Shown here: piece after piece, positions 7,482 to 43,999 of the stretch
How positions within the stretch are numbered: the stretch's first letter is position 1
Layout of the letters: every line of letters begins with the position of its first letter
Assembly: GCA_041747555.1 (NCBI GenBank)
Contig: JBGTEY010000008.1
Location: 3,557-67,556 of the forward strand
Source: Patescibacteria group bacterium
GTDB taxonomy: Bacteria > Patescibacteriota > Microgenomatia > UBA1400 > PJMF01
Direction: 5' to 3'
Length of the DNA: 64,000 nt
Program-made: the position numbers and the translations under genes
The notes under the pieces: generated by a model
Databases searched by the model: none
What the model was told of the DNA's origin: nothing
What the model saw: the letters and a program-made list of their open reading frames with translations, nothing else

Positions 7482-7490
7482 GGATTTTTC

Positions 7491-8990
7491 TTAATTTGTT
7501 TTGGATCGAAACTGGAGTGCTTCCGCGACGTGTTGGTGCTTAATTGTATCTGAGCTGGACAGATCTGCGATTGTTCTCGCTACTTTTATGGTTCTAAAAT
7601 AGTTTCTGGCCGAGAGATTGAGGCGATGGGCAGCTTGGGTGAGGAACTGCTGCGTTTTTTTATCAATGACGCATGACTGGTGTAACTGCTGGGAAGAAAT
7701 TGTGGCATTGGTCACTGTTGATGCCTTATAGCGCGCACTTTGTCGTGCTCTTGCCTGCATGACGCGCCCCTGAATTTGAATTGACGATTCTGCTGGTTCA
7801 GTACTTGAGAGCAACGACACGTTGACCGATGGTAATTCAACATGAAGATCAAATCTATCTAGGAGTGGTCCAGATAATTTTCTTTGATACCGATGAATTG
7901 TAGTTGGGCTGCAGACACAAACTTTTTTGATGGAGCCACTGTATCCGCAAGGACAGGGATTTGCTGCAGCAATGATGCTGCAGACTGCAGGAAAGATTAC
8001 CGTCTCTTGAGCACGGACAATTGATATTTGACCATCTTCTAGCGGTTGCCTCAGTGACTCAAGACAATCTCGAGAAAATTCTGGCAGTTCATCTAAAAAT
8101 AACACGCCTCTATGAGCAAGGGACAGCTCTCCTGGCTTGATTGGGGAGTGACCACCAAGTAGGCCACTTCTCGATGTAGCATGATGGGGCGAGCGATAAG
8201 GTCGTTGGTTGATGTATCCTGATTGGGTAAGGCCACACAATGAATGGAGCGCAGTCACCTCAATGGATTCTTGTTTGGTAAGCGGGGGTAAAATACTTGG
8301 CAAAGCTTTTGCGAGCATGCTCTTTCCTGCTCCGGGAGGTCCGGTCATCAAGACGTTGTGTCCGCCGGCTGCTGCAATCTCCAATGCTCTTTTTGCTAAT
8401 TCTTGACCCCGAATGTTGGAAAAGGAATCAGTGCCAGCACTATTTTGAGGTGGCGGCACAAATGAAACATCCGTTGAAAGTGGTTTATTTTCATACAAGT
8501 AGTCGATAAGTTCTGAAATATGTCGAACGGGATGTATGACGTAGTCGCTCAAGAGAGATAATTCTCCAAGATTACCATGCGGCAAAACAATCGTCTTAAT
8601 GGAGTCATTCGAAAGCCCCGTTATCATTGCTAACGCACCTCGAACGGGCTTAATGCTGCCATCAAGTGAGAGCTCTCCAAGAAACAAAGTATTACTTATT
8701 TTGGCTGTACTTCGACGTAGTGAGATTAATAATGCTGCACAAATTGCCAGCTCATAGTGACTCCCTACCTTGGGAATATCAGCCGGTGCAAGATTAATTA
8801 CAATTCTTGATGATGGAATGCGAATGCCACAGCTTACCAATGCCGACCGAATGCGCTCTCTGGACTCAACAATGGTTTTTCCCGCCAATCCGATCAAAAT
8901 TAGTTGAGGTGTGCCACGAACTTTACTCACTTCGACGCGAACAAGTTGAGAAAAGAGGCCACTGAGTGCTGCGGTATACGTTACATTCAC
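7491..8990 (-). CDS. comM: YifB/ComM-family Mg-chelatase-like AAA+ ATPase
   Basis: N-terminal Lon-like domain, Walker A GPPGAGKS, and the C-terminal ANPCPCGY block typical of YifB. Confidence 0.75.
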   Translation of the reverse strand: MNVTYTAALSGLFSQLVRVEVSKVRGTPQLILIGLAGKTIVESRERIRSALVSCGIRIPSSRIVINLAPADIPKVGSHYELAICAALLISLRRSTAKISNTLFLGELSLDGSIKPVRGALAMITGLSNDSIKTIVLPHGNLGELSLLSDYVIHPVRHISELIDYLYENKPLSTDVSFVPPPQNSAGTDSFSNIRGQELAKRALEIAAAGGHNVLMTGPPGAGKSMLAKALPSILPPLTKQESIEVTALHSLCGLTQSGYINQRPYRSPHHATSRSGLLGGHSPIKPGELSLAHRGVLFLDELPEFSRDCLESLRQPLEDGQISIVRAQETVIFPAVCSIIAAANPCPCGYSGSIKKVCVCSPTTIHRYQRKLSGPLLDRFDLHVELPSVNVSLLSSTEPAESSIQIQGRVMQARARQSARYKASTVTNATISSQQLHQSCVIDKKTQQFLTQAAHRLNLSARNYFRTIKVARTIADLSSSDTIKHQHVAEALQFRSKTN

Positions 8991-9049
8991 AATACAGAGT
9001 ATGACGCCGCAACCTTACATGAAGGCTACAAGTGTTTTTCTGTCGGGAC

Positions 9050-10108
9050 CTATTGGACTGCATTTAGGGCGGCAATCTGCTCAATTAAGCGATTGCAATA
9101 TCCCCATTCGTTATCGTACCAACTGATGACTTTAAGCATATTTCCGCTGACTACGTTGGTTAGTGAGAGGTCTACGATTGATGACTCGGGCCTACCCACA
9201 ATATCTGATGAAACGACAGGATCATTGGTCACGGCAAGTATGCCCTTCCAGCGATCAAGCGTGCTCGCATTTTTGAAAATTTCATTTACTTCTTCAATTG
9301 TCGTATCTCTGCTCGTCAAGAAAACCATATCAGAAAGTGAGCCAACGGGCGTTGGTACACGCACGGCCAATCCGTCGAACTTACCCTTCAATTGAGGGAT
9401 AATTTCTGTAGTAGCTTTAGCTGCGCCGGTGCTTGTTGGAATGATATTTTCAGCTGCAGAGCGTGATCGTCTCAGATCCTTGTGTGAATTATCTTGGGTG
9501 TTTTGATCGTCAGTGTACGAATGAATTGTTGTGAGCATCGCTTTCTCAACGCCAATGTGTTGATCAATGAGTTGGACAACTGGAGCCACGCAGTTTGTGG
9601 TACAAGATGCATTTGAAAATACCTTGATATTTCGGTCAAATTCATTTACTCCGATCACAGAAGTGCTAATATTTCCATCACCCCCTGGAGCCGAAATTAA
9701 CACGGCATGCGCACCAGCCACAAAGTGCTGTGACGCCTTTTCTTCACTGGTAAAAACACCCGTAGATTCAATAACTGTATGCACTTCGTGCGCTCCCCAT
9801 GGAATTTTGGTTGGATCGCGTTGAGCGGTGACGGTAATGGTGTGGGAGCCGATGGAAATGGTTCCCAAGACTGGATCTTCGTCGGTTACGTCCTTTTTTG
9901 ATTGATGACGTTCGGTCGTAATTTCTTCTAAAAAGACACCATAATTCGAGTCGTATTTGAGCAGGTGAACCCATTGCTCAATGTCCATTGATCCCGAAGT
10001 ATTTATGACTGCCAATTCTGATTGGTCCTTAAACCTCGTCCACCAAACCCGGAACGAAGTCCGTCCAATTCTTCCAAATCCATTTATTCCAAAGCGTGGG
10101 CTGGCCAT
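9050..10108 (-). CDS. gap: Glyceraldehyde-3-phosphate dehydrogenase
   Basis: NGFGRIGR NAD-binding motif and ASCTTNC active site. Confidence 0.85.
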   Translation of the reverse strand: MASPRFGINGFGRIGRTSFRVWWTRFKDQSELAVINTSGSMDIEQWVHLLKYDSNYGVFLEEITTERHQSKKDVTDEDPVLGTISIGSHTITVTAQRDPTKIPWGAHEVHTVIESTGVFTSEEKASQHFVAGAHAVLISAPGGDGNISTSVIGVNEFDRNIKVFSNASCTTNCVAPVVQLIDQHIGVEKAMLTTIHSYTDDQNTQDNSHKDLRRSRSAAENIIPTSTGAAKATTEIIPQLKGKFDGLAVRVPTPVGSLSDMVFLTSRDTTIEEVNEIFKNASTLDRWKGILAVTNDPVVSSDIVGRPESSIVDLSLTNVVSGNMLKVISWYDNEWGYCNRLIEQIAALNAVQ

Positions 10109-10126
10109 AGATCTCCTTTTTATATA

Positions 10127-23165: not shown

Positions 23166-23825
23166 ATGAGAAAGATGTTTTTGCTACTAGTAGCAGCAAT
23201 TCTGGTCATGCTAGCTGCATTGGCCAGAAGCGCAGAAGAACCAGTTCGGGGGCAGACGGAGAGTTCCTTATGCCTCCCCGTAGTTGCCAATCAGCGTGAG
23301 CTCGATTGGAATTACGGGTACGACGGTCGGGAAAAATCCCACAATGCCGTCTTACCTGAAGAGTTTATAGGTTGGTCACTATTCAGCTCCTGCGAAAGTG
23401 GGAAGTTGACCAGTGAGGTAGCATCCTTCGCCTCAAAGGGCTGGGCGAGGTTGCCCTACGGAGCAGGTCCAAACTGTTTCGGAAAGCTTTCCAATCCCGA
23501 TGGAGAGGTGGTATACACCTTAAACCCACAGGGCTGGCTCAAAGCCAGCGGGGAGCTGGTACTGGTCAGTCCAGTACCAAATGTCTGGAATCAAGTCCAG
23601 ACATGGAAAATTGAGGGAGGCGTGACGCCCTTGAACACGCAAGCAGTAGTGGTTTTCTGGGAGAGGAACTTGCACGAAGTAGTATTCCTGCAAAACGGAA
23701 TATTTACCTTCGCGCCTCCACCTGAGGCGAGCAACTGGATGTCAACTTTACTGCGGCTCAACATAGGCGGAGACACCTATCTCTCCGAATATGTAACGCT
23801 TGGGGGAGCCCTCCCCCCGCCCTAA
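23166..23825 (+). CDS. Secreted Cys-containing hypothetical protein with a signal peptide
   Basis: N-terminal hydrophobic signal (MRKMFLLLVAAILVMLAALA), RBS AGGAG 8 nt upstream, and a strong terminator downstream. Confidence 0.45.
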   Translation: MRKMFLLLVAAILVMLAALARSAEEPVRGQTESSLCLPVVANQRELDWNYGYDGREKSHNAVLPEEFIGWSLFSSCESGKLTSEVASFASKGWARLPYGAGPNCFGKLSNPDGEVVYTLNPQGWLKASGELVLVSPVPNVWNQVQTWKIEGGVTPLNTQAVVVFWERNLHEVVFLQNGIFTFAPPPEASNWMSTLLRLNIGGDTYLSEYVTLGGALPPP

Positions 23826-24096: not shown

Positions 24097-25585
<1,489 letters not shown>

Positions 25586-25729
25586 AAAATTTATTAGCGT
25601 TATATATTAATTGATTAAAATCAATTGGATTTCACTGTTAACCTGCGAAAGAGATTCGCAGGCGCTATTTGGATAGGTGACCCAAATAGCTAAGAAATTG
25701 AACGGTTTCTACCATCGTATGTATTACTG

Positions 25730-25882: not shown

Positions 25883-27016
25883 TTATAGCAAAGAATTTTT
25901 GTTTGCCAAGGGTGTAGATATGACTCCCCCACCAAGACAAATGGTTGCATTTTCTGATTCACTATATAGAACTGCCGACTGCCCGGTGGCGATACCTTTA
26001 GTTGGGGAACTGAGCGCGACTGTTTTGTCTTGGAGCGTGCAGGGAATGCGTTCACCGGTGTGGCGGATTCGCACAGTTAGCTGCGCATCTGTTTGCGGGT
26101 TATTTTGACTGATCCAATGTATATCTTCTATTTTAAACGACTCCCTCAATGTCTCACTCCCAAACCCAACCACCAGCTGGTTCAATTCAGAATTTTTTTC
26201 TATCACATAAAATGGTGGAATATTGTGCTTATCTATAGTAGTACCATCTTCTGCCGTGATAGCCGTTGTTGCTTCTATAGTGAATCCGTGTCTCTGACCA
26301 ATAGTGTAAAACCACAATCCTGTATGTGATCCAATCACATTTCCAGAAGTATCAACGACATCTCCTGGATTTTCACCGAGTCGGTCTTTGAGAAATCCAT
26401 GCACATTGATATCGCCAATGAAGCAAATTCCAACTGAGTCTTTTTTATCAGCTACATGAATTAACCGAGTCTTTGCTTCGTCTCGCACTTGATCCTTGGT
26501 AAGCTCTGCTAGAGGAAAAATAGTATGCGCAAGTTGCTGGGCATTTAAAACATACAGAAAATACGTCTGGTCTTTGTGTGTATCTACCGGAACGCAGAGC
26601 TGATTATCTACAATTTTTGCATAATGCCCGGTCGCCACAAAATCAAATCCCTGCTCCATCGCCCAGTCATAAAACAATCCAAACTTTATTTCTTTGTTGC
26701 AAAGTACATCTGGGTTTGGCGTTCTGCCTTTTTGATATTCGTCAAAAAAGTTTTCTACTACTTTCTCTTTATATGCATCTTTAAAATCAAGAACTTGAAA
26801 TGGTATATCAAGTGACAGCGCGACTGCCAAGGCATCTTTTCGATCTTGATCTGTTCTGCATCCGGGCGCGCGCCAGCATTCCATAAAGACACCAGTTACA
26901 TCATATCCCTGCTCTTTGAGCAAGTGAGCGCATACAGAAGAGTCAACACCACCAGACATGCCGAGTGCGACTTTCTTCTTTTTTGAGAGTGTGTTTGGTT
27001 TTGTTGGTGATTTCAT
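25883..27016 (-). CDS. mnmA: tRNA-specific 2-thiouridylase
   Basis: PP-loop SGGVDSS and overall MnmA architecture. Confidence 0.85.
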   Translation of the reverse strand: MKSPTKPNTLSKKKKVALGMSGGVDSSVCAHLLKEQGYDVTGVFMECWRAPGCRTDQDRKDALAVALSLDIPFQVLDFKDAYKEKVVENFFDEYQKGRTPNPDVLCNKEIKFGLFYDWAMEQGFDFVATGHYAKIVDNQLCVPVDTHKDQTYFLYVLNAQQLAHTIFPLAELTKDQVRDEAKTRLIHVADKKDSVGICFIGDINVHGFLKDRLGENPGDVVDTSGNVIGSHTGLWFYTIGQRHGFTIEATTAITAEDGTTIDKHNIPPFYVIEKNSELNQLVVGFGSETLRESFKIEDIHWISQNNPQTDAQLTVRIRHTGERIPCTLQDKTVALSSPTKGIATGQSAVLYSESENATICLGGGVISTPLANKNSLL

Positions 27017-27041
27017 TTGATCCTATATTGTACCAAATTAA

Positions 27042-28529
27042 TTGCTGCTGCCCATGTACCAACAGTATCCCCAGCAGTATAATGCACCAAATATCGAACC
27101 GACCATGAAAACGAGCGTCCTTATCAAACCTAATTCATTTCATGCAGAAAAGCATTGGTACCCCAAGGCTCTCAATGCGCAAATTCATCCAGCAGTTTCT
27201 TTTTTTATGCATCTTGGCAATGAGCGAATTGCCACCAGATATGCTCATCTGAATCCAAAAGTAGATAAACAAGCATTACTTGCAATCCTGTCTCACCGCA
27301 CTAAATATTTTAGGTGGGGTGGTACAGATTTGATGAGAACGGTGACTGCAAGTGGTCGTTCGCGCATGGTTGTGATCGAAACAAACTCATGTCCCTCTGG
27401 TCAAAAATCATTTCCGGTACTCAACGACAGTGATGAGCAAGGTGGTTATCGTCGATTAATTGAGTCAACATTTCTTCCTCAAGTTACAGCGCACAAGGCA
27501 AAAGGTGAGTTGGCAGTTTTTTATGACAAAAATGAAATGGAGGCTGAGGGGTATGCGGCCGCCATGGCTGATGTATTTAATGAAAATGTTCACCTCATTG
27601 AATGGCATGACGAACCGGAATCTGGAGTAAGAGTTAAAGCTGAGACTATCGAGGTATATACTTCTGAAAAAACATGGATCCCAATCCGCGCAGGATTTCG
27701 TTACGTTACGCAGCGCCCATGGAATCGAATTCCTGTACAAACAAAAACACTGTTGCTCAATCCCATCATCAGTTGTCTAGCAGGCGGTCGAAATAAACTA
27801 GTCGCTGCCAAAGCCTACAACCTCTTCAACGCCGAGCTTAGTGGAAAAGGCCTAGAAATAGCTACTCCAAAAACAATTTGGGACGTCAACAAGAATGAAG
27901 TTAGACTCTGGGTAAAGCAGTTTGGAGGCAAAGCGGTAGTCAAAATACCTTATGGGAATGCAGGCCAAGGTGTCTACCCCATTACTTCAGAACAAGAACT
28001 CGATGATTTTATGAGTCTAGATTTTTCGTACGATAAATTTATCGTACAAAGTCTCATTGGAAACTACAACTGGAGTTCATCTACCGAAACAGACAAATTT
28101 TATCAAACAGGAACCATCCCCAGTGCCAAAGGTAATACCTTTGTCTTTGACCTCAGAATGATGGTGGTAAATGGTAAGGAAGGCTTCTCACCAATGGCCA
28201 CATATGCCAGAAAAGCCCTCATCCCCATGACCGACACGATCGCTACTGGGCTCGATTCAAGAGAAATGCTGATCACTAATTTGTCAGGAAAACTACCAGA
28301 TGGCACATGGACTACCGATACTTCAAGATTACTCCTCATGGATAGAAAAGATTTCAATCGATTAGGTATCAGTCTTGACGATTTAATCTCTGGATACATT
28401 CAGTCGGTGTTGGCGGTGACCGCAATTGACAACATGGCGCAACAGCTTATTTCTACCAAAAAAAAGTTCAAACGAAAATTATTTGCTTCACTCAACGACG
28501 ATGACCAGCTACTTCAGGAAATACTCTGA
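27042..28529 (+). CDS. Divergent ATP-grasp-like protein with a roughly 270-aa N-terminal domain of unknown function (start may be at MKTSV, 27105)
   Basis: K...VVKIPYGNAGQGV glycine-rich loop, the IVQSLI (vvQeyI-like) block, and a downstream DLR...R block; 1-nt coupling to the next ATP-grasp gene. Confidence 0.35.
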   Translation: MLLPMYQQYPQQYNAPNIEPTMKTSVLIKPNSFHAEKHWYPKALNAQIHPAVSFFMHLGNERIATRYAHLNPKVDKQALLAILSHRTKYFRWGGTDLMRTVTASGRSRMVVIETNSCPSGQKSFPVLNDSDEQGGYRRLIESTFLPQVTAHKAKGELAVFYDKNEMEAEGYAAAMADVFNENVHLIEWHDEPESGVRVKAETIEVYTSEKTWIPIRAGFRYVTQRPWNRIPVQTKTLLLNPIISCLAGGRNKLVAAKAYNLFNAELSGKGLEIATPKTIWDVNKNEVRLWVKQFGGKAVVKIPYGNAGQGVYPITSEQELDDFMSLDFSYDKFIVQSLIGNYNWSSSTETDKFYQTGTIPSAKGNTFVFDLRMMVVNGKEGFSPMATYARKALIPMTDTIATGLDSREMLITNLSGKLPDGTWTTDTSRLLLMDRKDFNRLGISLDDLISGYIQSVLAVTAIDNMAQQLISTKKKFKRKLFASLNDDDQLLQEIL

Positions 28530-29428
28530 TGAAAAAAATGTCCCTGTGGTTTTGTCCTATACGCAATCCACAACCATATGAGCATGACCGCATTCTTGAG
28601 GAATTGAGTCAACTCGAAATTGATTTTAAAGAAGTGCAGCTGAACGATGTAAAACTCCAACTTACATCGAATCGTTCTGAACTCTATTTAGATGATCAGA
28701 AATTGGAATTTCCTGATGTTGCTTGGGTGAGAGTTGGACCACTGTATACCAATGCGTATGAGCGAGCAGTGGCGACAGCACTTGAGTCAAATGTGCATCT
28801 CTGTATTAATCCTCGAGTAGGCAGGATGATTTCTGATCAAAAATTTTGGACGTTGCAGGTGCTTTCCAGACATAACATTCCTATTCCAAAGACAATTATC
28901 ACTCCACTCCCGTTTAGTGCGCCTAATATTGAACAAGAATTGAAGTATCCAATGGTGCTCAAACCAGACCAAGGCGCTCGAGGACTCGGCGTGATGCTTA
29001 TAGAAAACAGAAAACAGCTCCAATCAGTTGGTGGTTTGCTTGAATATTTCAAAACAGACGAGGCAATTGTTTTGCAGGAATATATTGCTTTTAATCCGGG
29101 GAGCGATATTCGGGTATGGGTATTGGGAGACAAAGTTTTGGGCGCTATGAGAAGAACTTCATCTGGCGATACCTTTACCAGTAATTTTTCTGCTGGGGGT
29201 AACGTTGAGAAGGTTGAAGTAACGGAATTTATGACAGACATTGCCCTTCGCGCAACAAGTGCTCTTGGATTAACAATTGCAGGAGTTGATCTTCTTGAAA
29301 CTCAGGATGGATATGTAGTGTGTGAGGTGAATGCAAACCCTGGCTTCAAGGGCTTTGAACGAGCAACGGATGTCAATGTTCCACGAGAAGTGTTGACATA
29401 CTTGTTAAACAAATTCCAAGAAAAATAG
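28529..29428 (+). CDS. RimK-family alpha-L-glutamate ligase (ATP-grasp)
   Basis: VVLQEYI, DIRVWVLGDKVLGAMRR, and the AGVDLLE...GYVVCEVNANPGFKG blocks. Confidence 0.6.
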   Translation: MKKMSLWFCPIRNPQPYEHDRILEELSQLEIDFKEVQLNDVKLQLTSNRSELYLDDQKLEFPDVAWVRVGPLYTNAYERAVATALESNVHLCINPRVGRMISDQKFWTLQVLSRHNIPIPKTIITPLPFSAPNIEQELKYPMVLKPDQGARGLGVMLIENRKQLQSVGGLLEYFKTDEAIVLQEYIAFNPGSDIRVWVLGDKVLGAMRRTSSGDTFTSNFSAGGNVEKVEVTEFMTDIALRATSALGLTIAGVDLLETQDGYVVCEVNANPGFKGFERATDVNVPREVLTYLLNKFQEK

Positions 29429-29438
29429 TGGAAGTGAA

Positions 29439-30413
29439 TTACTCGATCTCAATTTGATCAAAACTATTCTCTTTGCCAACATCGATTATCATTTTGGCGT
29501 ATTTCGCGGGATCGGTTATGAAAAAACTAGGGAGTTGCGGTTCAAAGTTTGGATTTAGTGTTTGAGCTGCTGAAACATCCTCGAGAGCCATCTTGCCGTA
29601 GTATAGTTGCGTGCAATCAAAATTATGCTGATTGAGCCATTTCCAGACATGAACCATGCCTTCGAAATAGACTTGGTCTTTGGTATATCCTCCAGGGAGA
29701 CTGGTATCTTCCTGCCCTCTTTTTTGTCGAACGGCCACCCGCCACCTCTGGTCTGGATCATAAATATATTTGGTAAGCACTTTCCATAAATCAACGAATG
29801 AGCTAGTTTGGGCGGTGTGAACCCCGACGTATCGGATGGCTGGAATATATGCAGATTTGTATGTTCTTGGTAGTAATGCGTGCAGTGACGCAAGACCTTC
29901 TTCAGTTGTCAAATACGACCCAAAACCATACTGCTTTTTTTTCTGAAACCATGGTTGTTGTTCGTAATTTACTCGACGAAGAGCATGGGTACCAATCTCG
30001 TGATACAGCATCCCACGCAAACCTTCTTTTCGAAAAGAAACAGGGAGGCGAAGTTTAATTGTACTGGTATTAATTGTGGTTCTGGCGACAAATGATGATG
30101 ACCAGACCTGTTCATACCGATCTTCTAAATTATGCATTTCAAGAAAGGTCGTGATCATATCTGAAACCTGTTGTTGGGATAATTCTGGTCCCTCGAGCAT
30201 TTCCAGATCCTGTTGATTTCTCCCAAAATAAGTTTTATTCAAAATTACTTGTGCAAGCTGGACCAAGTGTGGTTTGGGTAGGCCATATTGTTGCAATTTT
30301 TTTTGTGAAATATCGGTGTTATATTTAAATTGAGGATTGTAGGACTGATCCTCAAAAAACTTCGCCTTTTCCTCATGAATATTAACTGGTGTGATATCGC
30401 TGAGAAAGCTCAT
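29439..30413 (-). CDS. Protein with an HExxxH metal-binding motif and a nearby QEGLA-like (TEEGLA) motif, resembling the flavohemoglobin-expression-modulating QEGLA-motif family
   Basis: YHEIGTHAL (HExxxH) followed about 35 aa later by TTEEGLASLHALL; 4-nt overlap (ATGA) with the upstream ATP-grasp gene. Confidence 0.5.
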   Translation of the reverse strand: MSFLSDITPVNIHEEKAKFFEDQSYNPQFKYNTDISQKKLQQYGLPKPHLVQLAQVILNKTYFGRNQQDLEMLEGPELSQQQVSDMITTFLEMHNLEDRYEQVWSSSFVARTTINTSTIKLRLPVSFRKEGLRGMLYHEIGTHALRRVNYEQQPWFQKKKQYGFGSYLTTEEGLASLHALLPRTYKSAYIPAIRYVGVHTAQTSSFVDLWKVLTKYIYDPDQRWRVAVRQKRGQEDTSLPGGYTKDQVYFEGMVHVWKWLNQHNFDCTQLYYGKMALEDVSAAQTLNPNFEPQLPSFFITDPAKYAKMIIDVGKENSFDQIEIE

Positions 30414-31696
30414 TCGTCAGTTTCTCCAATAAGAAAACCCTGGACGTCTTTGCGACCGAGCTCAATTTTATATTTGGTTCTATTTAGGCGTTTGGTGACG
30501 ACCATCGCAGTTTTAATCGTCTTTCCCTTAAGTACGAATGTCACCTCAACCACAGGTACTTTGCCTTCAATTGCCTCTTGCTGTCGCCATAAGAGGTCCT
30601 CTAGGTCAAGTAATCCAAGGCTTTCGGCAAATTGTGCACTAATCGCAGATCGGAATCTGCCGGTGTTAACGAGTGCCTCAGTCGTATGCTTAGCATTGTC
30701 ATCGCCAAGTACTTTAACGATTGGCTGCGTTGAAATAATTTGTATCCCCTCCTCAACTTTAATTTTATCGGCAAAACTTTCTGCAAACAGCGCTCGTGCA
30801 ATTTTCACTCCATGCTTGGCATCCCTCACCTCGAGTCCTTCAACTCGCTCTAGGCGTCGTTTTAAGCCGGCTTTGTTTGCTAGTTGGATAGAGAGTCCAG
30901 GATACCCATTGAGCTCGACAATCATTGGTCCTTTTTCTGGATGAATGAATAAATCTGCACCCATGTACTTGTACCCAGCAGCGTCGGCAGCTCTGACTGC
31001 AACCTCAAGAAGTCGTTGCCATTCGGGTATTAAGATGCCGTTTACTTTTTTCTTAATATGAGGAAAATGAGTGATATATCCAGATTTTCCATGAATGCCA
31101 TGCGTGGTAGCTCCGCTTGCCATGTCGATGCCAAGACCGATTGCGCCTTGATCGAGATTTGCTTTTCCACCCGATTCTTCGGTTGGAATTCTTGCCATAG
31201 CCATGACAGGCACAGAATTAAAAACAATCACACGGATGTCTGGTGTGCCTTTATAGGTATACTTGGCAAGTGTGGGATGCACGGGAATCATCTCTTCTAC
31301 CAAGCAGCGATGATTTCTGCCCCAAGTACTATATTCGCCATCGAGCACGTTTTGTACGTGTAGATCTAGATCTTCTTTGGTTATGGCTTCATCAAAGTTA
31401 TTGCGCCAGACAGACTCTTGCGCGATTTTTTTAGTTATTATCCAGATTCCCTTTCCTGCGAGTCCGTTAACCGGCTTGATCACAAATGGCACTGGAATTG
31501 ATTCCCAATGAATTGTTTCAAGCTCTTTTCTTGAGGAAAAAATGTGATACAGCGATGCGGTCGGATTTCCTGCACTTAGCATCAGCTCTTTAGTTTTGAG
31601 TTTTGAAAAGCCGTAGGACTTGGCTTTGGTGGTGTTCATTCTCGTGTAATGATGCCGAGCATTCATTCCGAGAATGTGAGATGGTTTGACTGCCAT
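30410..31696 (-). CDS. Alpha-L-glutamate ligase-like ATP-grasp protein (RimK-related family normally found with QEGLA and 7TM-transglutaminase partners)
   Basis: N-terminal ILGMNARHHYT...KLKTKELM block resembling the IMGMNRRN..YI...KLKTK signature of this family, plus ATP-grasp core blocks (VIKPVNGLAGKGIWII). Confidence 0.55.
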   Translation of the reverse strand: MAVKPSHILGMNARHHYTRMNTTKAKSYGFSKLKTKELMLSAGNPTASLYHIFSSRKELETIHWESIPVPFVIKPVNGLAGKGIWIITKKIAQESVWRNNFDEAITKEDLDLHVQNVLDGEYSTWGRNHRCLVEEMIPVHPTLAKYTYKGTPDIRVIVFNSVPVMAMARIPTEESGGKANLDQGAIGLGIDMASGATTHGIHGKSGYITHFPHIKKKVNGILIPEWQRLLEVAVRAADAAGYKYMGADLFIHPEKGPMIVELNGYPGLSIQLANKAGLKRRLERVEGLEVRDAKHGVKIARALFAESFADKIKVEEGIQIISTQPIVKVLGDDNAKHTTEALVNTGRFRSAISAQFAESLGLLDLEDLLWRQQEAIEGKVPVVEVTFVLKGKTIKTAMVVTKRLNRTKYKIELGRKDVQGFLIGETDE

Positions 31697-31705
31697 GGTG
31701 AGCCT

Positions 31706-32698
31706 TTATTCTTCTTCTTCGATCAATGATTTGAATCGCAGCCGCTCACTAACTCGAAGGCCGACAAACTTGCCAATTACAATATTGAGCAAACCTACGC
31801 TGACAATTAGTAGCTCGGGCTCGGTGAGAGCGAGTTGTTGGAGCGCTTCCCACTTGAGAATATATCCGGCAACTACCGCGAGCGCTATCGTTTCTATTGT
31901 AAGACTTAAAGCCTCGGTTTGCTTAGAACGTGCTTGAGCATCGATGAAGTTCTCTGCCAAGAGCACGAGAATTAAGATTGGAAAAATGTTGACGCTCATA
32001 AGCGTTACTAAATTGATTACTGGAGCAAGTAAAATTATTCCGAAAATACCGATAGAAACAGTCCAGAGTAAAAGCGCAGTTCTAGGAAGATATGGCAAAC
32101 GCGTTGGCTTGAGAATTTTTTTAGCAAAAAGAGCTGTGGCAGCAATTGCTAGAAATATGATAATTCCCTCAAGTACCCCCGTGGAAACGAGCGCCACTGA
32201 CAGCACAGCAGGAATATAAATACCGAATCCTCTCAGCCCTAAAACATGTCTTGAAGCCGCGATCAAAGAAGCAACTAGTGGAAAAAGCAGGACCAACACA
32301 ATAATATTGGGCTGAACACCTTCTGAAACTGCATATCGGATACTATGCTGGACAAAATTAAACCAATTTAATTCACTCGGGGGGTTGTCGTCAAGAAATG
32401 CCGCTAATCGGCTTTTTTTAACGCCGCTTGATTCGGTAATATCTTGATCTTTTTTCTCTTGAATTCGTTGCTCAACTTCTGCTGATGGTGATGCGAGTCT
32501 AGTCGAGTCTGTGGCAACACCTTCATCGGTGGCAACTTGATCTGAATCATCGAGTTGAGTGTCTATTTGTACCGTTTCAAGTGAGTTCTGTGCCAACACT
32601 ACAGATGGCGACAGCCCAGAGACCAACACCAATGAAAGAATAATAGTAAGTACCAATGACTTCATTCTGTCTATTATACAGGATTGGCTTGCTGTCAC
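31706..32698 (-). CDS. 7-TM membrane protein with a signal peptide and an extracellular N-terminal segment of about 110 aa; candidate 7TM partner of the ATP-grasp/QEGLA cassette
   Basis: Signal peptide MKSLVLTIILSLVLVSG followed by multiple hydrophobic helices. Confidence 0.4.
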   Translation of the reverse strand: MTASQSCIIDRMKSLVLTIILSLVLVSGLSPSVVLAQNSLETVQIDTQLDDSDQVATDEGVATDSTRLASPSAEVEQRIQEKKDQDITESSGVKKSRLAAFLDDNPPSELNWFNFVQHSIRYAVSEGVQPNIIVLVLLFPLVASLIAASRHVLGLRGFGIYIPAVLSVALVSTGVLEGIIIFLAIAATALFAKKILKPTRLPYLPRTALLLWTVSIGIFGIILLAPVINLVTLMSVNIFPILILVLLAENFIDAQARSKQTEALSLTIETIALAVVAGYILKWEALQQLALTEPELLIVSVGLLNIVIGKFVGLRVSERLRFKSLIEEEE

Positions 32699-32702: not shown

Positions 32703-33056
32703 TTACAGTAGTTTTTTGAGTAACGAATCTGACATTTGGATGCCGGCAGACAGGACCACCAGGGTCCAGAAATAGGACAGATCTATACCTAGGATTGTCA
32801 TCGGTAAAATGCTGAAACCTGGTACCACATACGTAAGAAGCCAGAGTAATCCCGCATTAATAACAAGTGAGAATAGTCCCAAGGTTACTATATTTATGGG
32901 AATAAAAAGAACGTTAAGTACCGGTCGCACCAGATGAAATAACAGCGCCAGCAGTATTGCCGAAACGATCAGGGTAAAAACACTCGAAATAGTCACTGGC
33001 GGAAGTGCCCAAGCGAAAAAACCAAGAATAATGAGCGCTCTGAGTATGGCTTTCAT
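32703..33056 (-). CDS. Small 4-TM membrane protein of the PF04020 (phage holin family 4 / YvlD-like) type
   Basis: VRPVLNVLFIPINIVTLGLFSLVINAGLLWLLTYVVPGF closely resembles the PF04020 consensus (VRPLL..LTLPLTILTLGLF.LVINALML.LAAWLVPGF). Confidence 0.45.
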   Translation of the reverse strand: MKAILRALIILGFFAWALPPVTISSVFTLIVSAILLALLFHLVRPVLNVLFIPINIVTLGLFSLVINAGLLWLLTYVVPGFSILPMTILGIDLSYFWTLVVLSAGIQMSDSLLKKLL

Positions 33057-33065: not shown

Positions 33066-34475
33066 CTACTGTAGCATGCGCCGAAGGCGCATACGAGTAT
33101 GTTGTCGTTTGGCAAACCGGTGTGACTCGTCTCTTACTTGTTGGATGAGCTTTAGTGCAGGATGGTCTGGTGCCAGAGCTGGAATTGAGTAGGTAAGGCC
33201 TTTTGGAATCGTGCCATTGATGATGTGTGAGATATCTATATTTGGTATGATAAGCCGATCTGGATTTTTGGCAATTCCGATAACGGGGCATGGCCACCTC
33301 CAGACAGAAAGTGCAGCACGCACCTGCCCTTTTCCTCCATCCACTACCACTAAGTTAGGAGTCTCCCACTCTGGGTGATTTTGACGTCTAAGCAGTGCTT
33401 CTTTCATCATCTGATAATCATTTGGGGTATCAAGTGAGCGAATATTGTAGAGCCGGTACTCGTCAGTATCCGGAACTCCATCAATAAAAGTGACTTGTGA
33501 AACTGCGGGGTTCGTGCCTTGAGTATTACTGACGTCATAGCCTTCAATTCGCGTCACAGGATAGGATTTGGGAACCGAGAAGTATGAGCTAATGATTTTT
33601 TGTAAATACTTTACCTGATCTTCATTTTTTTGCCTTGTTAGCATTGGCGTGATGAGCGTTGGATGGAGCTTTCTGGTCTGGAGGGTGAGATCTTTAATCA
33701 TAGAAATTTGATCTCGAAGTGTGGCCGCTCGCTCAAATCGTTCAGTTGTTATCGCATCTGTCATTTGTTCTCCTAGGCTTGCGACCACTTCCTTTTTCTT
33801 GCCGCGCAGAAACGCAACCAATTGAGTAATTTGCGCTTGGTACTCTTCTTGAGAAATTTTACCAACACACACGCCAGGACACTGATCAATGTGATAGAAA
33901 AAACAAGGTCGATTATTTTTTTCGCTAAATCCTTTGTTGCACCAAGTGAAGATTGGTCTAACTAACCTTAGGACTTCACGCACTTTATACCCACTCGGAA
34001 ATGGTCCGAGGAGTGTGCCTTTTTGTTGACTTTTTTGCCATGTTTTTTTTCTGATTTTAAGAACTTTGGGAAAAGTTTCATTTGTGATGAGTATATAGAG
34101 CGGGCTTTTATCGTCTTTAAGCGCAACATTAAATCTTGGTTGATAGGTGCGGATCAGCTCTGCTTCAACGAGCAGGGCTTGCAACTCACTGTCTAGTTCT
34201 TTCCACTGAATCTTGGTCGCTATCGTGACGAGCTGAAGAATTCTATGATTGAGTTGTTTTGTCTGGGTGTATGATTTTATCCGATTCTTGAGGTTCTTTG
34301 CTTTTCCGACGTAGAGCACGGAGTCGTTGCTGTCTGAAAACCAGTACACTCCCGGTTGTGAGGAGAGCGATGACACCGCCGATTCCCAAGCCAATAAAGA
34401 CTTTTTTTTGGGAGATAGGGTCGATGAAGTCTGGTCTTGTTTTAACGATGAATTCTTGGCTGTGGATTTCTGCAT
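33066..34475 (-). CDS. uvrC: Excinuclease ABC subunit C, short form of about 470 aa (GIY-YIG and UvrBC-interacting regions present)
   Basis: SQPGVYWFSD...LYVGKAKNLKNRIKSY GIY-YIG block aligned to the UvrC N-terminus. Confidence 0.7.
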   Translation of the reverse strand: MQKSTAKNSSLKQDQTSSTLSPKKKSLLAWESAVSSLSSQPGVYWFSDSNDSVLYVGKAKNLKNRIKSYTQTKQLNHRILQLVTIATKIQWKELDSELQALLVEAELIRTYQPRFNVALKDDKSPLYILITNETFPKVLKIRKKTWQKSQQKGTLLGPFPSGYKVREVLRLVRPIFTWCNKGFSEKNNRPCFFYHIDQCPGVCVGKISQEEYQAQITQLVAFLRGKKKEVVASLGEQMTDAITTERFERAATLRDQISMIKDLTLQTRKLHPTLITPMLTRQKNEDQVKYLQKIISSYFSVPKSYPVTRIEGYDVSNTQGTNPAVSQVTFIDGVPDTDEYRLYNIRSLDTPNDYQMMKEALLRRQNHPEWETPNLVVVDGGKGQVRAALSVWRWPCPVIGIAKNPDRLIIPNIDISHIINGTIPKGLTYSIPALAPDHPALKLIQQVRDESHRFAKRQHTRMRLRRMLQ

Positions 34476-36195
34476 GTGCGTTTCTGTCAGTGAGTGTTAT
34501 CAGCGCAGGCTTGTCTGTGAATATGTCCCAGCTCTCTGCGGTGATGGGCACAGTAATTGTTCTAGTTTGGTACGGTAAAATGTAATCAAGATCAGCTCCA
34601 GTTGAGGGAATAGTCTCATCACTCGAGGTAACTTGGATACCGATATCATACCATGCCTGACCACTGTGGTTGGTAATTACTGCCTGATATTGGCCAGGAA
34701 TGGGCAGTCCAACTATTTTTTGTGGTAGGAGATCTAGATCAAACTTGGCTTGCTTGGTGGGAAAACTGCTAGAAAATGTAACCTCTACATCTTTTGTCTC
34801 TTCACTCAGTGTTTTATAAGCGCCTGCTGGATGAGGCGCAGTGCTTGATTGGCCATTGATGATAAATACAATGTGATTGAGATCAAATTGAGAAAAATAA
34901 TTGATTCCTCCGGTGGTGTGTCCCCAAGTTGGATCAACCGGAATCCATCGCTGTCTGCTTTCATCATAATATTCTGGCCAAGAATGAAGTATATCTCCCT
35001 CGAAACTTACCGGTCTGAAAGTATCATTTTGGGTGTACGCGTACCCCACCGCGCGTCTGGCAGGTATGCCTGCCGCTCTCGATAAGGTCACAAACACATC
35101 TGTAAATTCCTGGCAAACTGCATCCTCTGGTTGGGCAAGTGCAGTTAGGGCACCCAACCTTGTTGAGCCCACCTCAATATTTGAGTGGGCGTACGTGAGT
35201 GTTGCTGTTGTGAAATCATAAATTGATTTCGGGTCGGTATAGGTTGTGGCTAATTCTTTGATGGTCGGGTGATTGGTTTCCCAATATTCCTGACTATTAG
35301 TTAATCTGGAGGAAGGAGGAACATGCGGCACATCATTGAGCGGATCAAGCGTTATGTGAGCATCTGCTGCCAACTGCACGATAGTGGTTGAGTGCGGTGG
35401 AATGGTGTATGTTGCGATCCAGTTTCCATCTGGGTCAACTTTAAGCTCATTTGAGTATGGGTCAAGTGAATGATAGTGCATTTTTTGGTATGCAGTATCT
35501 GGAGGGAGCGCGATCTGTGCGATAGCAGGTGTGCCACCTGAGTTTTCTAGATGGTAGCGAAGTGTCATGTTAAAAATTTGACTCGCGCCAAACAAAGCAG
35601 ACACCGATTCGCCCTGCAAATCATCAAAAATAGTGGTAATTGTCTCCCCTTGCGAGACTTCATCAGTGGGAGTGGGTGTCACTCGCACAGGGCCGCCAAA
35701 TTGCTTGGGGGTGATGATTCTCGTCGAGTGTTTTTTAATAGTGCGCTGGTCTGCGAGCTTTGGGATGTGGACCTCAAGTACGATGCCACCGATAGTTGCG
35801 AGGTCATGATTCACGTATTCAACGGTAAATTTTCTTGATTTTCCTTGCCCAACGAGTTCATCAGGGAAGGTGATTCCAATGCTGGTTCCCGTATCACTGC
35901 TGACTACATTTGCCTCAATTGGCTGGCCATTATACGTAACGATTACATTTTGCAGCGTAGGATAGCTCGATTTCATTCCGTACTGCTTGAGGAACAGTGT
36001 GGGTGATTTATTTGTGATGGTAAACTCGTGACTGACACGCGTAATTCCAAGTTTATCAACTTCATAGTTTGAATTAAGGATAGTCTCAAAGTGATCAGTT
36101 TCTTGTTCTTGTGCAAAAATTGGTCGTTGCTGCACCAAAAGTACTGCAAAGAAAATCGTAAGTAAAAAGGCAAAAAGGCGACGCATACAACCCAT
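34243..36195 (-). CDS. Secreted transglutaminase-like (papain-fold Cys-His-Asp) protein with a C-terminal TM anchor
   Basis: N-terminal signal peptide. Transglutaminase core DAVCQEFTDVFVTLSRAAGIPARRAVGY with downstream LHSWPEYY (His) and VDPTWG (Asp). C-terminal TM helix with a basic tail. The 3' end overlaps the uvrC 5' end by about 230 nt. Confidence 0.55.
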   Translation of the reverse strand: MGCMRRLFAFLLTIFFAVLLVQQRPIFAQEQETDHFETILNSNYEVDKLGITRVSHEFTITNKSPTLFLKQYGMKSSYPTLQNVIVTYNGQPIEANVVSSDTGTSIGITFPDELVGQGKSRKFTVEYVNHDLATIGGIVLEVHIPKLADQRTIKKHSTRIITPKQFGGPVRVTPTPTDEVSQGETITTIFDDLQGESVSALFGASQIFNMTLRYHLENSGGTPAIAQIALPPDTAYQKMHYHSLDPYSNELKVDPDGNWIATYTIPPHSTTIVQLAADAHITLDPLNDVPHVPPSSRLTNSQEYWETNHPTIKELATTYTDPKSIYDFTTATLTYAHSNIEVGSTRLGALTALAQPEDAVCQEFTDVFVTLSRAAGIPARRAVGYAYTQNDTFRPVSFEGDILHSWPEYYDESRQRWIPVDPTWGHTTGGINYFSQFDLNHIVFIINGQSSTAPHPAGAYKTLSEETKDVEVTFSSSFPTKQAKFDLDLLPQKIVGLPIPGQYQAVITNHSGQAWYDIGIQVTSSDETIPSTGADLDYILPYQTRTITVPITAESWDIFTDKPALITLTDRNAHAEIHSQEFIVKTRPDFIDPISQKKVFIGLGIGGVIALLTTGSVLVFRQQRLRALRRKSKEPQESDKIIHPDKTTQS

Positions 36196-42141: not shown

Positions 42142-42672
42142 TCATTGTAGTTTCAGCTGAAATACTAGCTCTTCAGTAGTTAGTGAATCAGTTTCTTTGA
42201 AGTTAAACTTTTCCGCTATTTTTCTTGTAGCCAGGTTATCTGGATGGCTGGTCAAAATGATTTTTCTACATCCAAGATTTTTTAAGTTATTAATGATGGA
42301 GTTTAGCACTTGGGTCGCTATTCCTTTTCCCCATGCCTCAGTCACTCCCATTACAATGCTAACCTCGCAGCTTGAGATATCATCTTCTTGCGAACTGGTG
42401 CCAAGGTGTCCTATAAATCCAAAAATAGGGTGGTTAATTCGGTAATATTGCTTGAGTGGATTCGATGTAGAGTGAAGCATAAATCCTTGAACAGGTGGAA
42501 CTCTAAGAAATTGAGTGACCTCAGGGTTTTTAAACCAACTTTCATAATATGGCGTTTCATTGCCGTCGAAAATGGTCAATGTAATTCCAGTTGCTCCTAC
42601 TACCAACTTTTTATCCAGTAATTTGTTGATCGGAACTGAGCTCAGTTTGAGATATTCAATTTTTCTATCCAT
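42142..42672 (-). CDS. GNAT-family N-acetyltransferase
   Basis: Acetyl-CoA-binding block (GKGIATQVLNSIINNLKNLG). Confidence 0.55.
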   Translation of the reverse strand: MDRKIEYLKLSSVPINKLLDKKLVVGATGITLTIFDGNETPYYESWFKNPEVTQFLRVPPVQGFMLHSTSNPLKQYYRINHPIFGFIGHLGTSSQEDDISSCEVSIVMGVTEAWGKGIATQVLNSIINNLKNLGCRKIILTSHPDNLATRKIAEKFNFKETDSLTTEELVFQLKLQ

Positions 42673-43999
42673 ATCTCACCTCCCCCACCAAATACAACGA
42701 CCCCGTAACCAAAGCCCCAACCCCCATCTCACTCGCCAACTCTTCCGCACGCTCCAACGCAACAGAACTATCAACCTCCAAAAACACCGGCACAGCCAAC
42801 ACCTCCTCCGCCACCTTCACCAACTCCTCCGCCAGAAAATGCAAATTAAGCCCCATGTCAGTTGCCTGACTAAACTGCGTCACCACCATTGCCGCCACAA
42901 TCGGCTCCAATAGTTCCAGCATTTCATCAGCATTTTTATTTTTCTTCAATCCAAAAACTACCACTGCCTGCCGTCCAGGATACGCAGCCTGCCAGGCAGA
43001 TACCAAAGCCTTAATCTTGTCAGGATTATGCGCGCCATCAAGCACCAAGAGTGGATTATCCCGAATGATCTCAAACCTGCCAGCGAACGCTGTGGTGCTC
43101 AGGGCTTTTTTAATAATTTCTGGCGAAAGCTCAATTTCATGCGCCTTAGCAAATTCCAAGCAAGCTGTGATCGCCAAACTCGCATTTGCAACTTGGTACA
43201 GCCCTGGTGTTTTGACAATAATTTCTGATATTCGATCGTCACCATTTACATAGTCAAATTGAGAACTGTGTGCGTCCGCTGACACTTTTTCTGCCCTAAA
43301 ATCCTGCCCAGAAACCAGTAGCGGCACCTGCTGATCTGCGCAGTGCGTCTGCAATAAATCGAGTAAATCAGGCTGGTCCACCCCAGTCACAGCGACCGCA
43401 TTTCCTGGTTTAATCACCTGCATTTTGTCTTGGAGAATCTTAGTTTTGGTATCACCCAGAATTTGGGTGTGATCCAGCCCCACATTAGTAACAACACAAA
43501 CTGTTGCCTCAAGCACATTGGTCCCATCAAACTTACCACCGAGACCTGCCTCAATCACCGCTGCATCAACACCCTCGCTCGCAAACCACACAAAACACGC
43601 AGCAACAAGCACTTCAAAATAGCTTGGCTTGCCGTACTGGTACTCTGCCATACCATCAATTGTGGGGAGCAGTTCATTGATCACTTGTACAAATTGGTCC
43701 TCAGAAATCAGTTGACCATCAATCACAAACCGCTCCCTCATGGTCTGCAAGTGCGGTGAGGTATGCAGGCCTACTTTCAACCCTGCCTGTTGCAAGATTT
43801 TCGCAGACAGATATGCGGTCGAACCTTTGCCTGCAGTTCCGACGATGTGAATTGTTTTGTATTTGAGCTGTGGATTGCCGAGCCTGCGAAGAAACTCGCG
43901 CATCCGCTCGAGGCCCAAATGACCAGGAAATACTTCCGTTTGGCCGGTGGGGATTTTACTATGGAGGTAGCTTTCAGCTTCTGCAAAAGAATTGATCAT
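42665..43999 (-). CDS. folC: Folylpolyglutamate synthase / dihydrofolate synthase (Mur-ligase family)
   Basis: IHIVGTAGKGST P-loop, HTSPHL, and the Mur ligase middle and C-terminal domains. Confidence 0.7.
   Translation of the reverse strand: MINSFAEAESYLHSKIPTGQTEVFPGHLGLERMREFLRRLGNPQLKYKTIHIVGTAGKGSTAYLSAKILQQAGLKVGLHTSPHLQTMRERFVIDGQLISEDQFVQVINELLPTIDGMAEYQYGKPSYFEVLVAACFVWFASEGVDAAVIEAGLGGKFDGTNVLEATVCVVTNVGLDHTQILGDTKTKILQDKMQVIKPGNAVAVTGVDQPDLLDLLQTHCADQQVPLLVSGQDFRAEKVSADAHSSQFDYVNGDDRISEIIVKTPGLYQVANASLAITACLEFAKAHEIELSPEIIKKALSTTAFAGRFEIIRDNPLLVLDGAHNPDKIKALVSAWQAAYPGRQAVVVFGLKKNKNADEMLELLEPIVAAMVVTQFSQATDMGLNLHFLAEELVKVAEEVLAVPVFLEVDSSVALERAEELASEMGVGALVTGSLYLVGEVRYG

Follow-up and report, generated by a model that had tools for sequence, protein, structure and literature searches.

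A predicted circularly permuted ATP-grasp ligase of an unnamed family is paired with a RimK-type ligase beside a MATCAP-containing cassette in a Patescibacteria group bacterium

Acidic C-terminal tails are written and erased enzymatically in both bacteria and eukaryotes: RimK extends the -EE end of ribosomal protein S6, and MATCAP cleaves off the residue that comes after the acidic tail of tubulin. In the S6 system the stepwise addition is balanced by a peptidase, while in the tubulin tyrosination/glutamylation cycle ATP-grasp writers are paired with a MATCAP-family eraser. In Pseudomonas, published genetics assign RloB and RloC to one pathway with the RloA proteases, which cleave poly-glutamate, and the underlying biochemistry was left open (PMC12239564). 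Here we describe a 64,000-nucleotide (nt) stretch of a Patescibacteria group bacterium (GenBank assembly GCA_041747555.1, contig JBGTEY010000008.1, positions 3,557 to 67,556; hereafter the window), in which two adjacent genes, encoding the putative ATP-grasp ligases U495 (the long protein of the pair) and RimK299, converge on a cassette for a MATCAP-like metallocarboxypeptidase, an RloC-like ligase and an RloB-like seven-transmembrane (7TM) protein (Table 1). We find that U495 represents a new, permuted ATP-grasp family with two distinct conserved contexts, and we consider what the pair may do beside the cassette.

The locus shares features with each of these systems and departs from each. Like the RimK/S6 system, it encodes a ligase, RimK299, that passes the RimK-family model with every catalytic residue present, and the logic that we propose for the pair is likewise one of residues added step by step to a C-terminal -EE end, with a peptidase as counterweight; unlike that system, it has no RimB gene, and its candidate acceptor is a membrane protein rather than S6. 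As in the tubulin cycle, a protein with an acidic -EE(E)(E) tail has ATP-grasp writers and an eraser of the MATCAP family (PF08014, 84 bits) encoded next to it, but the window contains no TTL-family ligase, the system is bacterial and membrane-associated, and its substrate is one that we infer. The cassette carries RloB-like 7TM_transglut and RloC-like ATPgrasp_ST genes in the same order as Pseudomonas RloABC (PMC12239564). By contrast, Pseudomonas RloB has an inactive transglutaminase domain and RloA is separate and secreted, neither of which the cassette has, whereas the cassette adds a MATCAP-like peptidase and an oligo-Glu tail on the 7TM protein that two gammaproteobacterial examples lack; RloABC has no counterpart of the U495/RimK299 pair.

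Table 1. Features of the ligase pair and the adjoining cassette (window coordinates; U495 residues counted from the ATG at 27054)
Feature	Coordinates	Strand	Basis
U495, putative circularly permuted ATP-grasp ligase, family without a name	27054..28529	+	ORF, homologues, AF2 model, Foldseek
U495 predicted N-terminal Mg-binding hairpin, D92 ... E109-x-N111, 'GGTDLMRTVTASGRSRMVVIETNSCP'	27327..27386	+	hhalign, invariance
U495 predicted ATP-binding/catalytic core: K248, K297, Gly-rich loop Y300-V307 (27951-27974), Q332, D366-x-R368, R386, N409	27795..28280	+	hhalign, invariance
TGATG stop/start overlap, U495/RimK299	28527..28531	+	sequence reads ...CTC TGA TG AAA...
RimK299, RimK-family alpha-L-glutamate-type ATP-grasp ligase, 299 aa	28529..29428	+	TIGR00768, PF08443
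10-nt gap between convergent stops of RimK299 and the MATCAP-like gene	29429..29438	.	inspection
MATCAP/QEGLA-type metallocarboxypeptidase homologue, last cassette gene	29439..30413	-	PF08014 83.9 bits (cutoff 27)
RloC-like ATPgrasp_ST ligase (residues 1-305) with ~120-aa C-terminal domain	30410..31696	-	PF14397 190 bits; TIGR02291 250 bits (cutoff 314)
RloB-like 7TM_transglut membrane protein, short form without transglutaminase-like domain	31706..32665	-	PF14402 84.5 bits
mnmA, synteny anchor	25883..27016	-	NF001138 392 bits

An AlphaFold2 (AF2) model of U495 built from 37 sequences (mean pLDDT 80.6, pTM 0.86) was compared with the PDB by Foldseek, and every one of the 24 chains matched at E<=1e-3 was an ATP-grasp enzyme. 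The top matches were eukaryotic glutathione synthetases (8FBZ, 1M0W, 2HGS, 5OES; E 1e-8 to 1e-7 over 440-480 columns), with the permuted bacterial ATP-grasp 3n6x, a 'putative glutathionylspermidine synthase', second at E 2e-8; a RimK-domain structure (5i47), synapsin and ArgX/LysX chains aligned over ~300 columns, the ArgX match at E 3e-3. TM-scores to these structures were modest (0.37-0.40), and the modelled resemblance to glutathione synthetases is one of fold and topology rather than of close kinship. Eukaryotic glutathione synthetases (2HGS, 1M0W, 8FBZ) nevertheless match U495 in size (~475 amino acids, aa), in a near-full-length sequential structural alignment, in an ExN Mg strand near the N-terminus and in lysines and a Gly loop in the C-terminal half, but they show no match in sequence models or in PDB sequence searches and occupy other gene contexts.

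The active site could be traced by profile alignment. Over residues 190-337, hhalign placed K248, K297, the loop YGNAGQGV and Q332 (in IVQSLI) of U495 on K105, K145, the Gly loop and Q183 of RimK, with Ser in U495 at the place of the Glu that follows Q183. The KIPYGNAGQGV and IVQSLI motifs singled out by the sequence-only reading are thus genuine ATP-grasp motifs, and the fold that it had suspected was recovered by structure prediction. The D...ExN Mg-binding hairpin is C-terminal in ordinary ATP-grasp enzymes, and nothing downstream of residues 190-337 aligned with the C-terminal Mg-binding motif of RimK, as hhalign with the whole permuted alignment stayed in the central domain. Instead, 'GGTDLMRTVTASGRSRMVVIETNSCP' near the U495 N-terminus (residues 89-114) aligned with 'AGVDLLETQDGYVVCEVNANP' of RimK299 (residues 251-271; E 7e-5). 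Given that this hairpin sits in the N-terminal part, U495 appears to be a complete, circularly permuted ATP-grasp enzyme with the topology of eukaryotic glutathione synthetase; the N-terminal ~270 aa, earlier taken for an unknown domain preceding an ATP-grasp half, belong to the ATP-grasp and carry its predicted Mg-binding hairpin. D92, E109, N111, K248, K297, Q332, D366, R368, R386, N409 and R425 are invariant in 36/36 family members at identities down to 35%. U495 has the fold, the two ATP-phosphate lysines, the Gly-rich loop, the adenine-contacting Q and the Mg hairpin of the ATP-grasp superfamily, and with all ATP-grasp catalytic residues kept it is probably catalytically intact. A C-terminal D433-F-N435 was rejected as the Mg motif, being conserved in only 25/36 and 21/36 members, respectively, and lying in a predicted helix.

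Three start codons are available to U495: TTG 27042, which gives the 495 aa of the open reading frame (ORF) table (27042..28529 (+)); ATG 27054, the public gene call, which gives 491 aa; and ATG 27105, which gives 474 aa. The N-termini of relatives ('MKTSSVIFPNSF...' or 'MEKNILVTPNSF...') correspond to ATG 27105 ('MKTSVLIKPNSF...'), and residues 1-14 of the 491-aa protein have pLDDT <50 in the AF2 model, so that ATG 27105 is probably the true start and TTG 27042 is unlikely. With more than 3,600 homologues of U495 and 291 of RimK299, neither gene of the pair is a chance ORF.

Apart from the start of U495, the gene structure proposed by the sequence-only reading held: both ORFs are as it gave them (27042..28529 (+) and 28529..29428 (+)), the TGATG overlap is present at 28527-28531, and the stop codon of RimK299 (29426-29428) faces the end of the MATCAP/QEGLA gene at 29439 across the 10-nt gap that it had described. 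An AGGA lies ~10 nt upstream, and the overlap is consistent with translational coupling of U495 and RimK299; in relatives the junction overlaps in two contigs (L005 and L086) and is a 5-nt gap in a third (L088). A promoter and terminator scan returned nothing exceeding shuffled expectation; the 10-nt gap is too short for an ORF and lacks a terminator-like hairpin. The unusual ATP-grasp density that the same reading had noticed is also real, with U495, RimK299 and the ATPgrasp_ST/TIGR02291-like protein of 30410..31696 lying within 5 kb and six ATP-grasp genes in the relative L086. The gene ~13 kb away that it had called FolC and drawn into the pathway adds nothing; this Mur-ligase-type gene (42665..43999 (-)) matches the Mur_ligase_M and Mur_ligase_C domains only.

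RimK299, read earlier as RimK-type, scored 221.1 bits on TIGR00768 (cutoff 143.4) and E 3e-44 on PF08443, with only a marginal match to the TTL family (PF03133, E 0.0037). Its predicted catalytic residues are K105, K145, G149/152/154, Q183-E184, D193-x-R195, N219, D254 and E266-x-N268, which include all residues invariant in a 27-sequence RimK alignment (K145, R195, N219, D254, E266 and N268). Its best sub-model matches were LysX and MptN, yet it fell below the LysX model TIGR02144 (166.6 bits vs cutoff 275.6) and does not classify as LysX/ArgX, and the window ORF survey found no small acidic-tailed ORF near the pair that could serve as a LysW-like carrier. It also fell below the S6-ligase equivalog NF007764 (123.6 bits vs cutoff 331), and these profile scores indicate that RimK299 is a bona fide RimK-family ligase and not an S6-ligase orthologue. 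Among its 291 homologues, only four proteins, one of them from a 'Microgenomates group bacterium', are close (48-76% identity), all others being <=40% identical.

The U495 family is large and widespread. Nearly all of the more than 3,600 homologues are 57-60% identical to U495, ~480 aa long and annotated 'hypothetical', mainly from Saprospiraceae and other Bacteroidota, and an exhaustive search of 1.84 billion representatives (at 50% identity) returned 749 matches at E<=1e-3. The family spans Candidate Phyla Radiation (CPR) bacteria, Bacteroidota, fungi, red algae, nematodes and rotifers at 35-60% identity. Homologues in eukaryote assemblies (P0121, P0127, P0145, P0150, P0186 and P0399; 42-54% identity, all annotated hypothetical) come from Podila verticillata (Mortierellaceae), Rotaria, Trichinella, Trichuris, Fonticula alba and Cyanidium caldarium, the Trichinella gene model being fused to CTF18. 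A rough neighbour-joining tree groups the CPR sequences in a clade of their own, with a Bacteroidota/Marinicella group as its sister. A recent transfer of U495 from Saprospiraceae was rejected, given that the CPR clade is separate and its internal divergence (61%) is about as deep as its distance to the Bacteroidota/Marinicella group.

Known families do not accommodate U495. No Pfam family matched it, and none recurred among 37 aligned homologues even at E<=10; NCBIfam gave only a weak RimK-family match over residues 265-339, and PDB sequence searches with the family profile or the N-terminal hairpin alone yielded nothing meaningful. The eukaryotic glutathione synthetase models (GSH_synth_ATP / GSH_synthase) matched neither U495 nor any of the 37 members at E<=10. 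Like U495, CP_ATPgrasp_2 (3n6x) is a bacterial permuted ATP-grasp predicted to make peptide-like bonds. CP_ATPgrasp_2 genes occur with alpha-E, transglutaminase and Anbu-type genes. No such genes lie near U495, whose neighbours in >90 loci are GshB-like, AstE-like, polyamine or RimK genes, and the CP_ATPgrasp_1/2 models did not match it. Glutathionylspermidine synthetase and polyamine-amide ligases share ATP-grasp chemistry, and Bacteroidota U495 genes lie in or near homospermidine and spermidine biosynthesis genes, but the GSP_synth model did not match U495 and the 64-kb window has no polyamine genes. Thus, a large and unusually conserved family, with a predicted intact active site in the rare glutathione-synthetase-type permutation, is still without a Pfam or NCBIfam model, a name or an assigned reaction. 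Neither this family nor bacterial MATCAP cassettes were described in the literature searched, the coverage of which did not extend to the 2009 amidoligase survey of Iyer et al.

The pair lies between the MATCAP-like gene and mnmA, which is divergent from U495. The MATCAP-like protein belongs to the MATCAP/QEGLA family, with HEIGTH at residue 138 and EEGLA at 171, and misses the narrower TIGR02421 (94 bits vs cutoff 339). The 7TM gene, whose ORF extends over 31706..32698 (-) in the ORF table, encodes a protein that scored 71 bits on the RloB model NF052267 (cutoff 900) through its 7TM part only; with the RloC-like protein also below its cutoff (250 vs 314) and no separate RloA gene, the cassette does not classify as RloABC. 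PADLOC matched none of the five proteins, and therefore this is not a known defence system. The C-terminal ~125 aa of the RloC-like ligase (30410-30790) weakly resemble clan-AA (retropepsin-type) aspartic proteases (Pfam E 0.0056; TIGR03698 E 0.009 in one relative), with NTG in place of DTG/DSG in all five close relatives; it is possibly an RloA/RimB-like domain that binds but is inactive, joined to the ligase in one protein. Just past uvrC, and conserved there in relatives, a 650-aa Transglut_core protein (57.6 bits; 34243-36195 (-)) has a signal peptide and a C-terminal transmembrane anchor; it is possibly an active transglutaminase-like protein near a 7TM protein that is without its 'inactive transglutaminase' domain. 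Its longest ORF and the uvrC ORF (33066..34475) share ~230 nt, which probably means that one of their starts has been miscalled. Directly upstream of the cassette, a 117-aa protein of the 'Phage_holin_4_2' family with four transmembrane segments (32703-33056 (-)) is likewise conserved in relatives.

The gene order mnmA / U495, RimK / MATCAP, RloC-like, 7TM, holin-like, uvrC recurs in four contigs (L088, L089, L005 and L086, some of which miss an end), one of them an NCBI 'Microgenomates group' metagenome-assembled genome (MAG). U495 is 90% identical to the window protein in L088, 71% in L005 and 61% in L086, and the L089 copy is cut by the contig end; across five CPR contigs U495 is tightly paired with a RimK-type ligase. 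L086 packs six ATP-grasp genes (four RimK-type, U495 and RloC-like) into ~7.3 kb (2773-10110). RimKa, U495, RimKb and RimKc share a strand; RimKd, which overlaps the MATCAP gene, and the RloC-like gene after it are encoded on the opposite strand. In a further locus (L096), an orthologue of the L086 RimKc follows the MATCAP gene co-directionally.

A wider survey found 33 further metagenome loci with an RloC-like protein (58-71% identity, 428 aa each). The 7TM gene was upstream of it in 33/33 and the MATCAP gene downstream in 26, the contig ending earlier in 6 of the other 7. In 19 of ~21 loci with enough sequence, mnmA follows the cassette on the same strand at a gap of 24 nt to 3 kb; in this order of 7TM, RloC-like, MATCAP and mnmA (window 25883-32665; loci L094-L125) a tRNA 2-thiouridylase gene travels with the cassette. 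The interval between MATCAP and mnmA in other Patescibacteria contains 0-4 extra ATP-grasp genes. By hidden Markov model (HMM) search, such extra genes follow MATCAP in 12/33 loci and belong to at least 4 clades: they lie between MATCAP and mnmA in L102, L103, L111, L117 and L122 and beyond mnmA in L094 and L124, and in the other five the contig ends first. The layout of L111 (7TM, RloC-like, MATCAP, a convergent RimK-type gene, mnmA) is that of the window minus U495. Because extra ATP-grasp genes of several clades recur after MATCAP, the MATCAP-mnmA interval is a recurrent landing site for ATP-grasp ligases, and the window pair is one of the variants that occupy it.

An obvious candidate acceptor for such ligases would be the oligo-Glu tail of the 7TM protein, which ends ...RFKSLIEEEE (Glu codons 31709-31720, gene end 31706-31720, minus strand). 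Two to five terminal Glu residues are present in 118/120 homologues of the 7TM protein (Microgenomates, Pacebacteria, Woesebacteria and others), and the run also occurs in 33/33 of the metagenome loci and in the four close relatives; we found no publication on it. By contrast, two gammaproteobacterial RloB-like proteins (from a Legionella plasmid and Aeromonas), encoded in rloABC-type loci without MATCAP, end in ...LAKARS and ...TPGKDK, not in Glu. The 7TM tail is predicted to be cytoplasmic because inspection of the sequence gave a signal peptide, an external segment and seven helices. The RloC-like protein ends ...GETDE, and its relatives usually have acidic ends too (-GETDE, -GEIEE); a survey of the 797 window ORFs with 25 aa or more gave no other real protein with two or more acidic residues at its end. 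A precursor-peptide ORF beside the pair, which the sequence-only reading had suggested looking for, was rejected: the space around the pair (flanks of 37-88 nt, 1 nt of overlap, a gap of 10 nt) is too small for one, and small ORFs with an acidic tail were not found.

Taking these observations together, we tentatively prefer a reading, possible rather than probable, in which the pair works with the cassette in the window's clade: the ligases would lengthen an acidic C-terminal tail, and the MATCAP-like carboxypeptidase would shorten it again. U495 and RimK299 would form a two-ligase operon in which each, as a carboxylate-amine ligase following the general ATP-grasp mechanism, activates a carboxylate as an acyl-phosphate and joins it to an amine, and the two would act one after the other on the same growing acidic chain. 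The pair would thereby supply accessory 'writers' to a Patescibacteria-wide module of RloB-like 7TM protein, RloC-like ligase and MATCAP-like carboxypeptidase. For the tail, -IEEEE of the 7TM protein is the best candidate and -GETDE of the RloC-like ligase the second; its trimming by the MATCAP-like peptidase would complete a logic reminiscent of RimK on S6 and of TTL and MATCAP on tubulin. Tandem ATP-grasp ligases to which the pair can be compared include, besides RimK on S6 and the TTL/TTLL ligases opposed by MATCAP/CCP carboxypeptidases, those that make metabolites in the manner of GshB/GspS.

What makes a link to the cassette plausible is that the MATCAP-mnmA interval repeatedly holds ATP-grasp ligases of several clades across Patescibacteria. 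We also counted in its favour that the catalytic residues of both ligases are complete, that the confident U495 model best matches ATP-grasp enzymes which form peptide bonds, that coupling of U495 to a second ATP-grasp gene recurs (RimK-type in the five CPR contigs, GshB-like in 41/58 loci elsewhere), that U495 in L086 stands in an array with RimKc, whose L096 orthologue follows MATCAP, and that the Glu tail of the 7TM protein is conserved here and absent from the two RloB-like proteins of MATCAP-less loci. Several observations weigh against it. The pair is convergent with the cassette and is not co-transcribed with it; the clade of RimK299 differs from the cassette-side RimK types of other lineages (27% identity to the RimK of L111); and the cytoplasmic location of the 7TM tail is itself a prediction. 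Moreover, a U495 HMM found no U495 in 33/33 of the other cassette loci, and the adjacency is confined to one small syntenic clade (the window, L088, L089, L005 and L086) and may therefore reflect a single evolutionary event. The earlier proposal that the clustered ligases belong to one modification pathway thus stands in part: the recurrent ligase slot makes the cassette link plausible, but U495 itself occurs in 0/33 other cassette loci and has other partners elsewhere.

Those partners were examined in 80 U495 loci from Saprospiraceae, Lewinellaceae, Saprospira grandis, Tenacibaculum, Flavobacteriales, Marinicella and Enhygromyxa, 58 of them informative (at least 2.5 kb downstream of U495). 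An AstE/AspA-family amidohydrolase was present in 49/58 (best sub-model DoeB at 81-95 bits, below cutoff), and a GshB-like ATP-grasp gene, closer to bacterial glutathione synthase than to RimK (NF003573 140 bits and TIGR00768 78 bits, both below cutoff), lay between it and U495 in 41/58; in Marinicella, Tenacibaculum and a Flavobacteriales MAG the amidohydrolase directly follows U495. Polyamine genes were found within 8 kb of U495 in 22/93 loci, in four arrangements. One of these (L060, L075, L027 and L059) is a co-directional array of U495, arginine decarboxylase (ADC), an agmatinase-type ureohydrolase, a DHS-like protein (PF01916, 148 bits) and an acidic-tailed protein of 100-115 aa, continued by a GshB-like ligase in L060, L075 and L027 and then by an AstE-like gene in L060 and L075; the L059 array was followed only as far as the small protein. 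ADC, SpeB and SpeY constitute the recently established agmatine-dependent homospermidine pathway (PMC13625781). The small protein (L060 6883-7230; L075 5545-5865; L027 13208-13522; L059 5471-5773) matches no Pfam family; its conserved N-terminal part of ~65 aa is followed by a strongly acidic tail whose last residues are DDE, NDE or AKD, and it could itself be a protein substrate. The cassette was never beside U495 in the 58 informative genomes, which lie outside the window's clade. A conserved unrelated context in relatives, named beforehand as a finding that would speak against a special pathway, is thus what we observed, with amidohydrolase and GshB-like partners, often homospermidine genes and never the cassette.

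AstE/DoeB-like, GshB-like and homospermidine partners point to a metabolite rather than a protein substrate, and U495 and RimK299 might accordingly make a short peptide or peptide-amine conjugate, such as a glutathionylspermidine-like polyamine amide or a glutathione-like tripeptide, with the adjacency to the cassette accidental. We regard this as the most serious, if somewhat unlikely, alternative. The nearest folds of U495 are glutathione synthetases and a putative glutathionylspermidine synthase, outside CPR it can stand in a single array with ADC, SpeB, SpeY, the small protein, GshB-like and AstE-like genes, and its very high conservation from bacteria to eukaryotes would fit a universal metabolite substrate. 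However, the 64-kb window contains no AstE-like, GshB-like, ADC, SpeB or SpeY gene, a RimK-type ligase of another kind replaces the GshB-like partner, and the pair's position is one where cassette-associated ligases recur. The acidic-tailed small protein encoded just upstream of the Saprospiraceae GshB-like ligase keeps a protein tail possible even there; an acidic tail could be a common theme, and the tail and metabolite readings need not conflict.

A free acidic peptide linked to the cassette, with the ligases building or decorating oligo-alpha-glutamate, the 7TM protein handling or exporting it and peptidases degrading it, has been loosely proposed for Pseudomonas RloABC and seems improbable here. 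RimK is able to make free poly-alpha-glutamate, and RloB-like and RloC-like genes are part of the window cassette. P. aeruginosa mutants without the RloA proteases have defects that are suppressed when rloB or rloC is lost as well; RloA, whose substrate channel is positively charged, can also cut the substrates of RimB (PMC12239564). All of this would suit such a peptide. It would, however, leave the invariant encoded -EE(E)(E) end of the 7TM protein unexplained; moreover, the window peptidase is a cytoplasmic carboxypeptidase-type MATCAP homologue rather than a secreted RloA, and the retropepsin-like domain has NTG, not DTG. Plain S6 modification, with RimK299 glutamylating S6 and U495 as an accessory, is very improbable, for while RimK299 is in the RimK family and its more distant relatives are annotated as S6-Glu ligases, it scored 123.6 bits against the S6-ligase cutoff of 331 with LysX and MptN as its best sub-models, it is 30-40% identical to everything beyond its own small clade, and no RimB or rpsF gene lies nearby, whereas a true S6-type RimK (L081, 363 bits on NF007764) has RimB-like and AstE-like neighbours.

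Extending the tail reading beyond this clade, we speculate that Patescibacteria run a bacterial 'C-terminal tail code' composed of the oligo-Glu tail of the RloB-like 7TM protein, ATP-grasp writers (RloC-like, RimK types and, in this clade, U495) and a MATCAP trimmer. This broader proposal is unlikely as it stands; if true, the tubulin tyrosination/glutamylation cycle would have in this code a counterpart among prokaryotes, and possibly its antecedent, and U495 would found a new class of permuted ligases, present also in some eukaryotes, that act on protein tails or conjugate polyamines. The association of MATCAP, ATP-grasp ligases and acidic tails bears on the origin of the eukaryotic tubulin-tail enzymes. 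In Pseudomonas, Rlo-type systems have been connected with osmotic tolerance, antibiotic resistance and biofilm, and a bacterial MATCAP with ATP-grasp ligases and an -EE(E)(E)-tailed membrane protein offers an experimental route into their biochemistry. The operon partners of U495, GshB-like, AstE-like and homospermidine genes in Bacteroidota and a RimK-type gene beside the MATCAP cassette in CPR bacteria, give testable hypotheses for its reaction.

Beyond mnmA, the window encodes a 219-aa protein with a signal peptide (23166-23825 (+)) that matched no family. Given that no 23S or 5S gene adjoins the 16S gene anywhere in the window, the rRNA genes are unlinked; the 16S rRNA gene itself is complete (24099-25587 (-), 1,445 bits), with several spurious ORFs called inside it.

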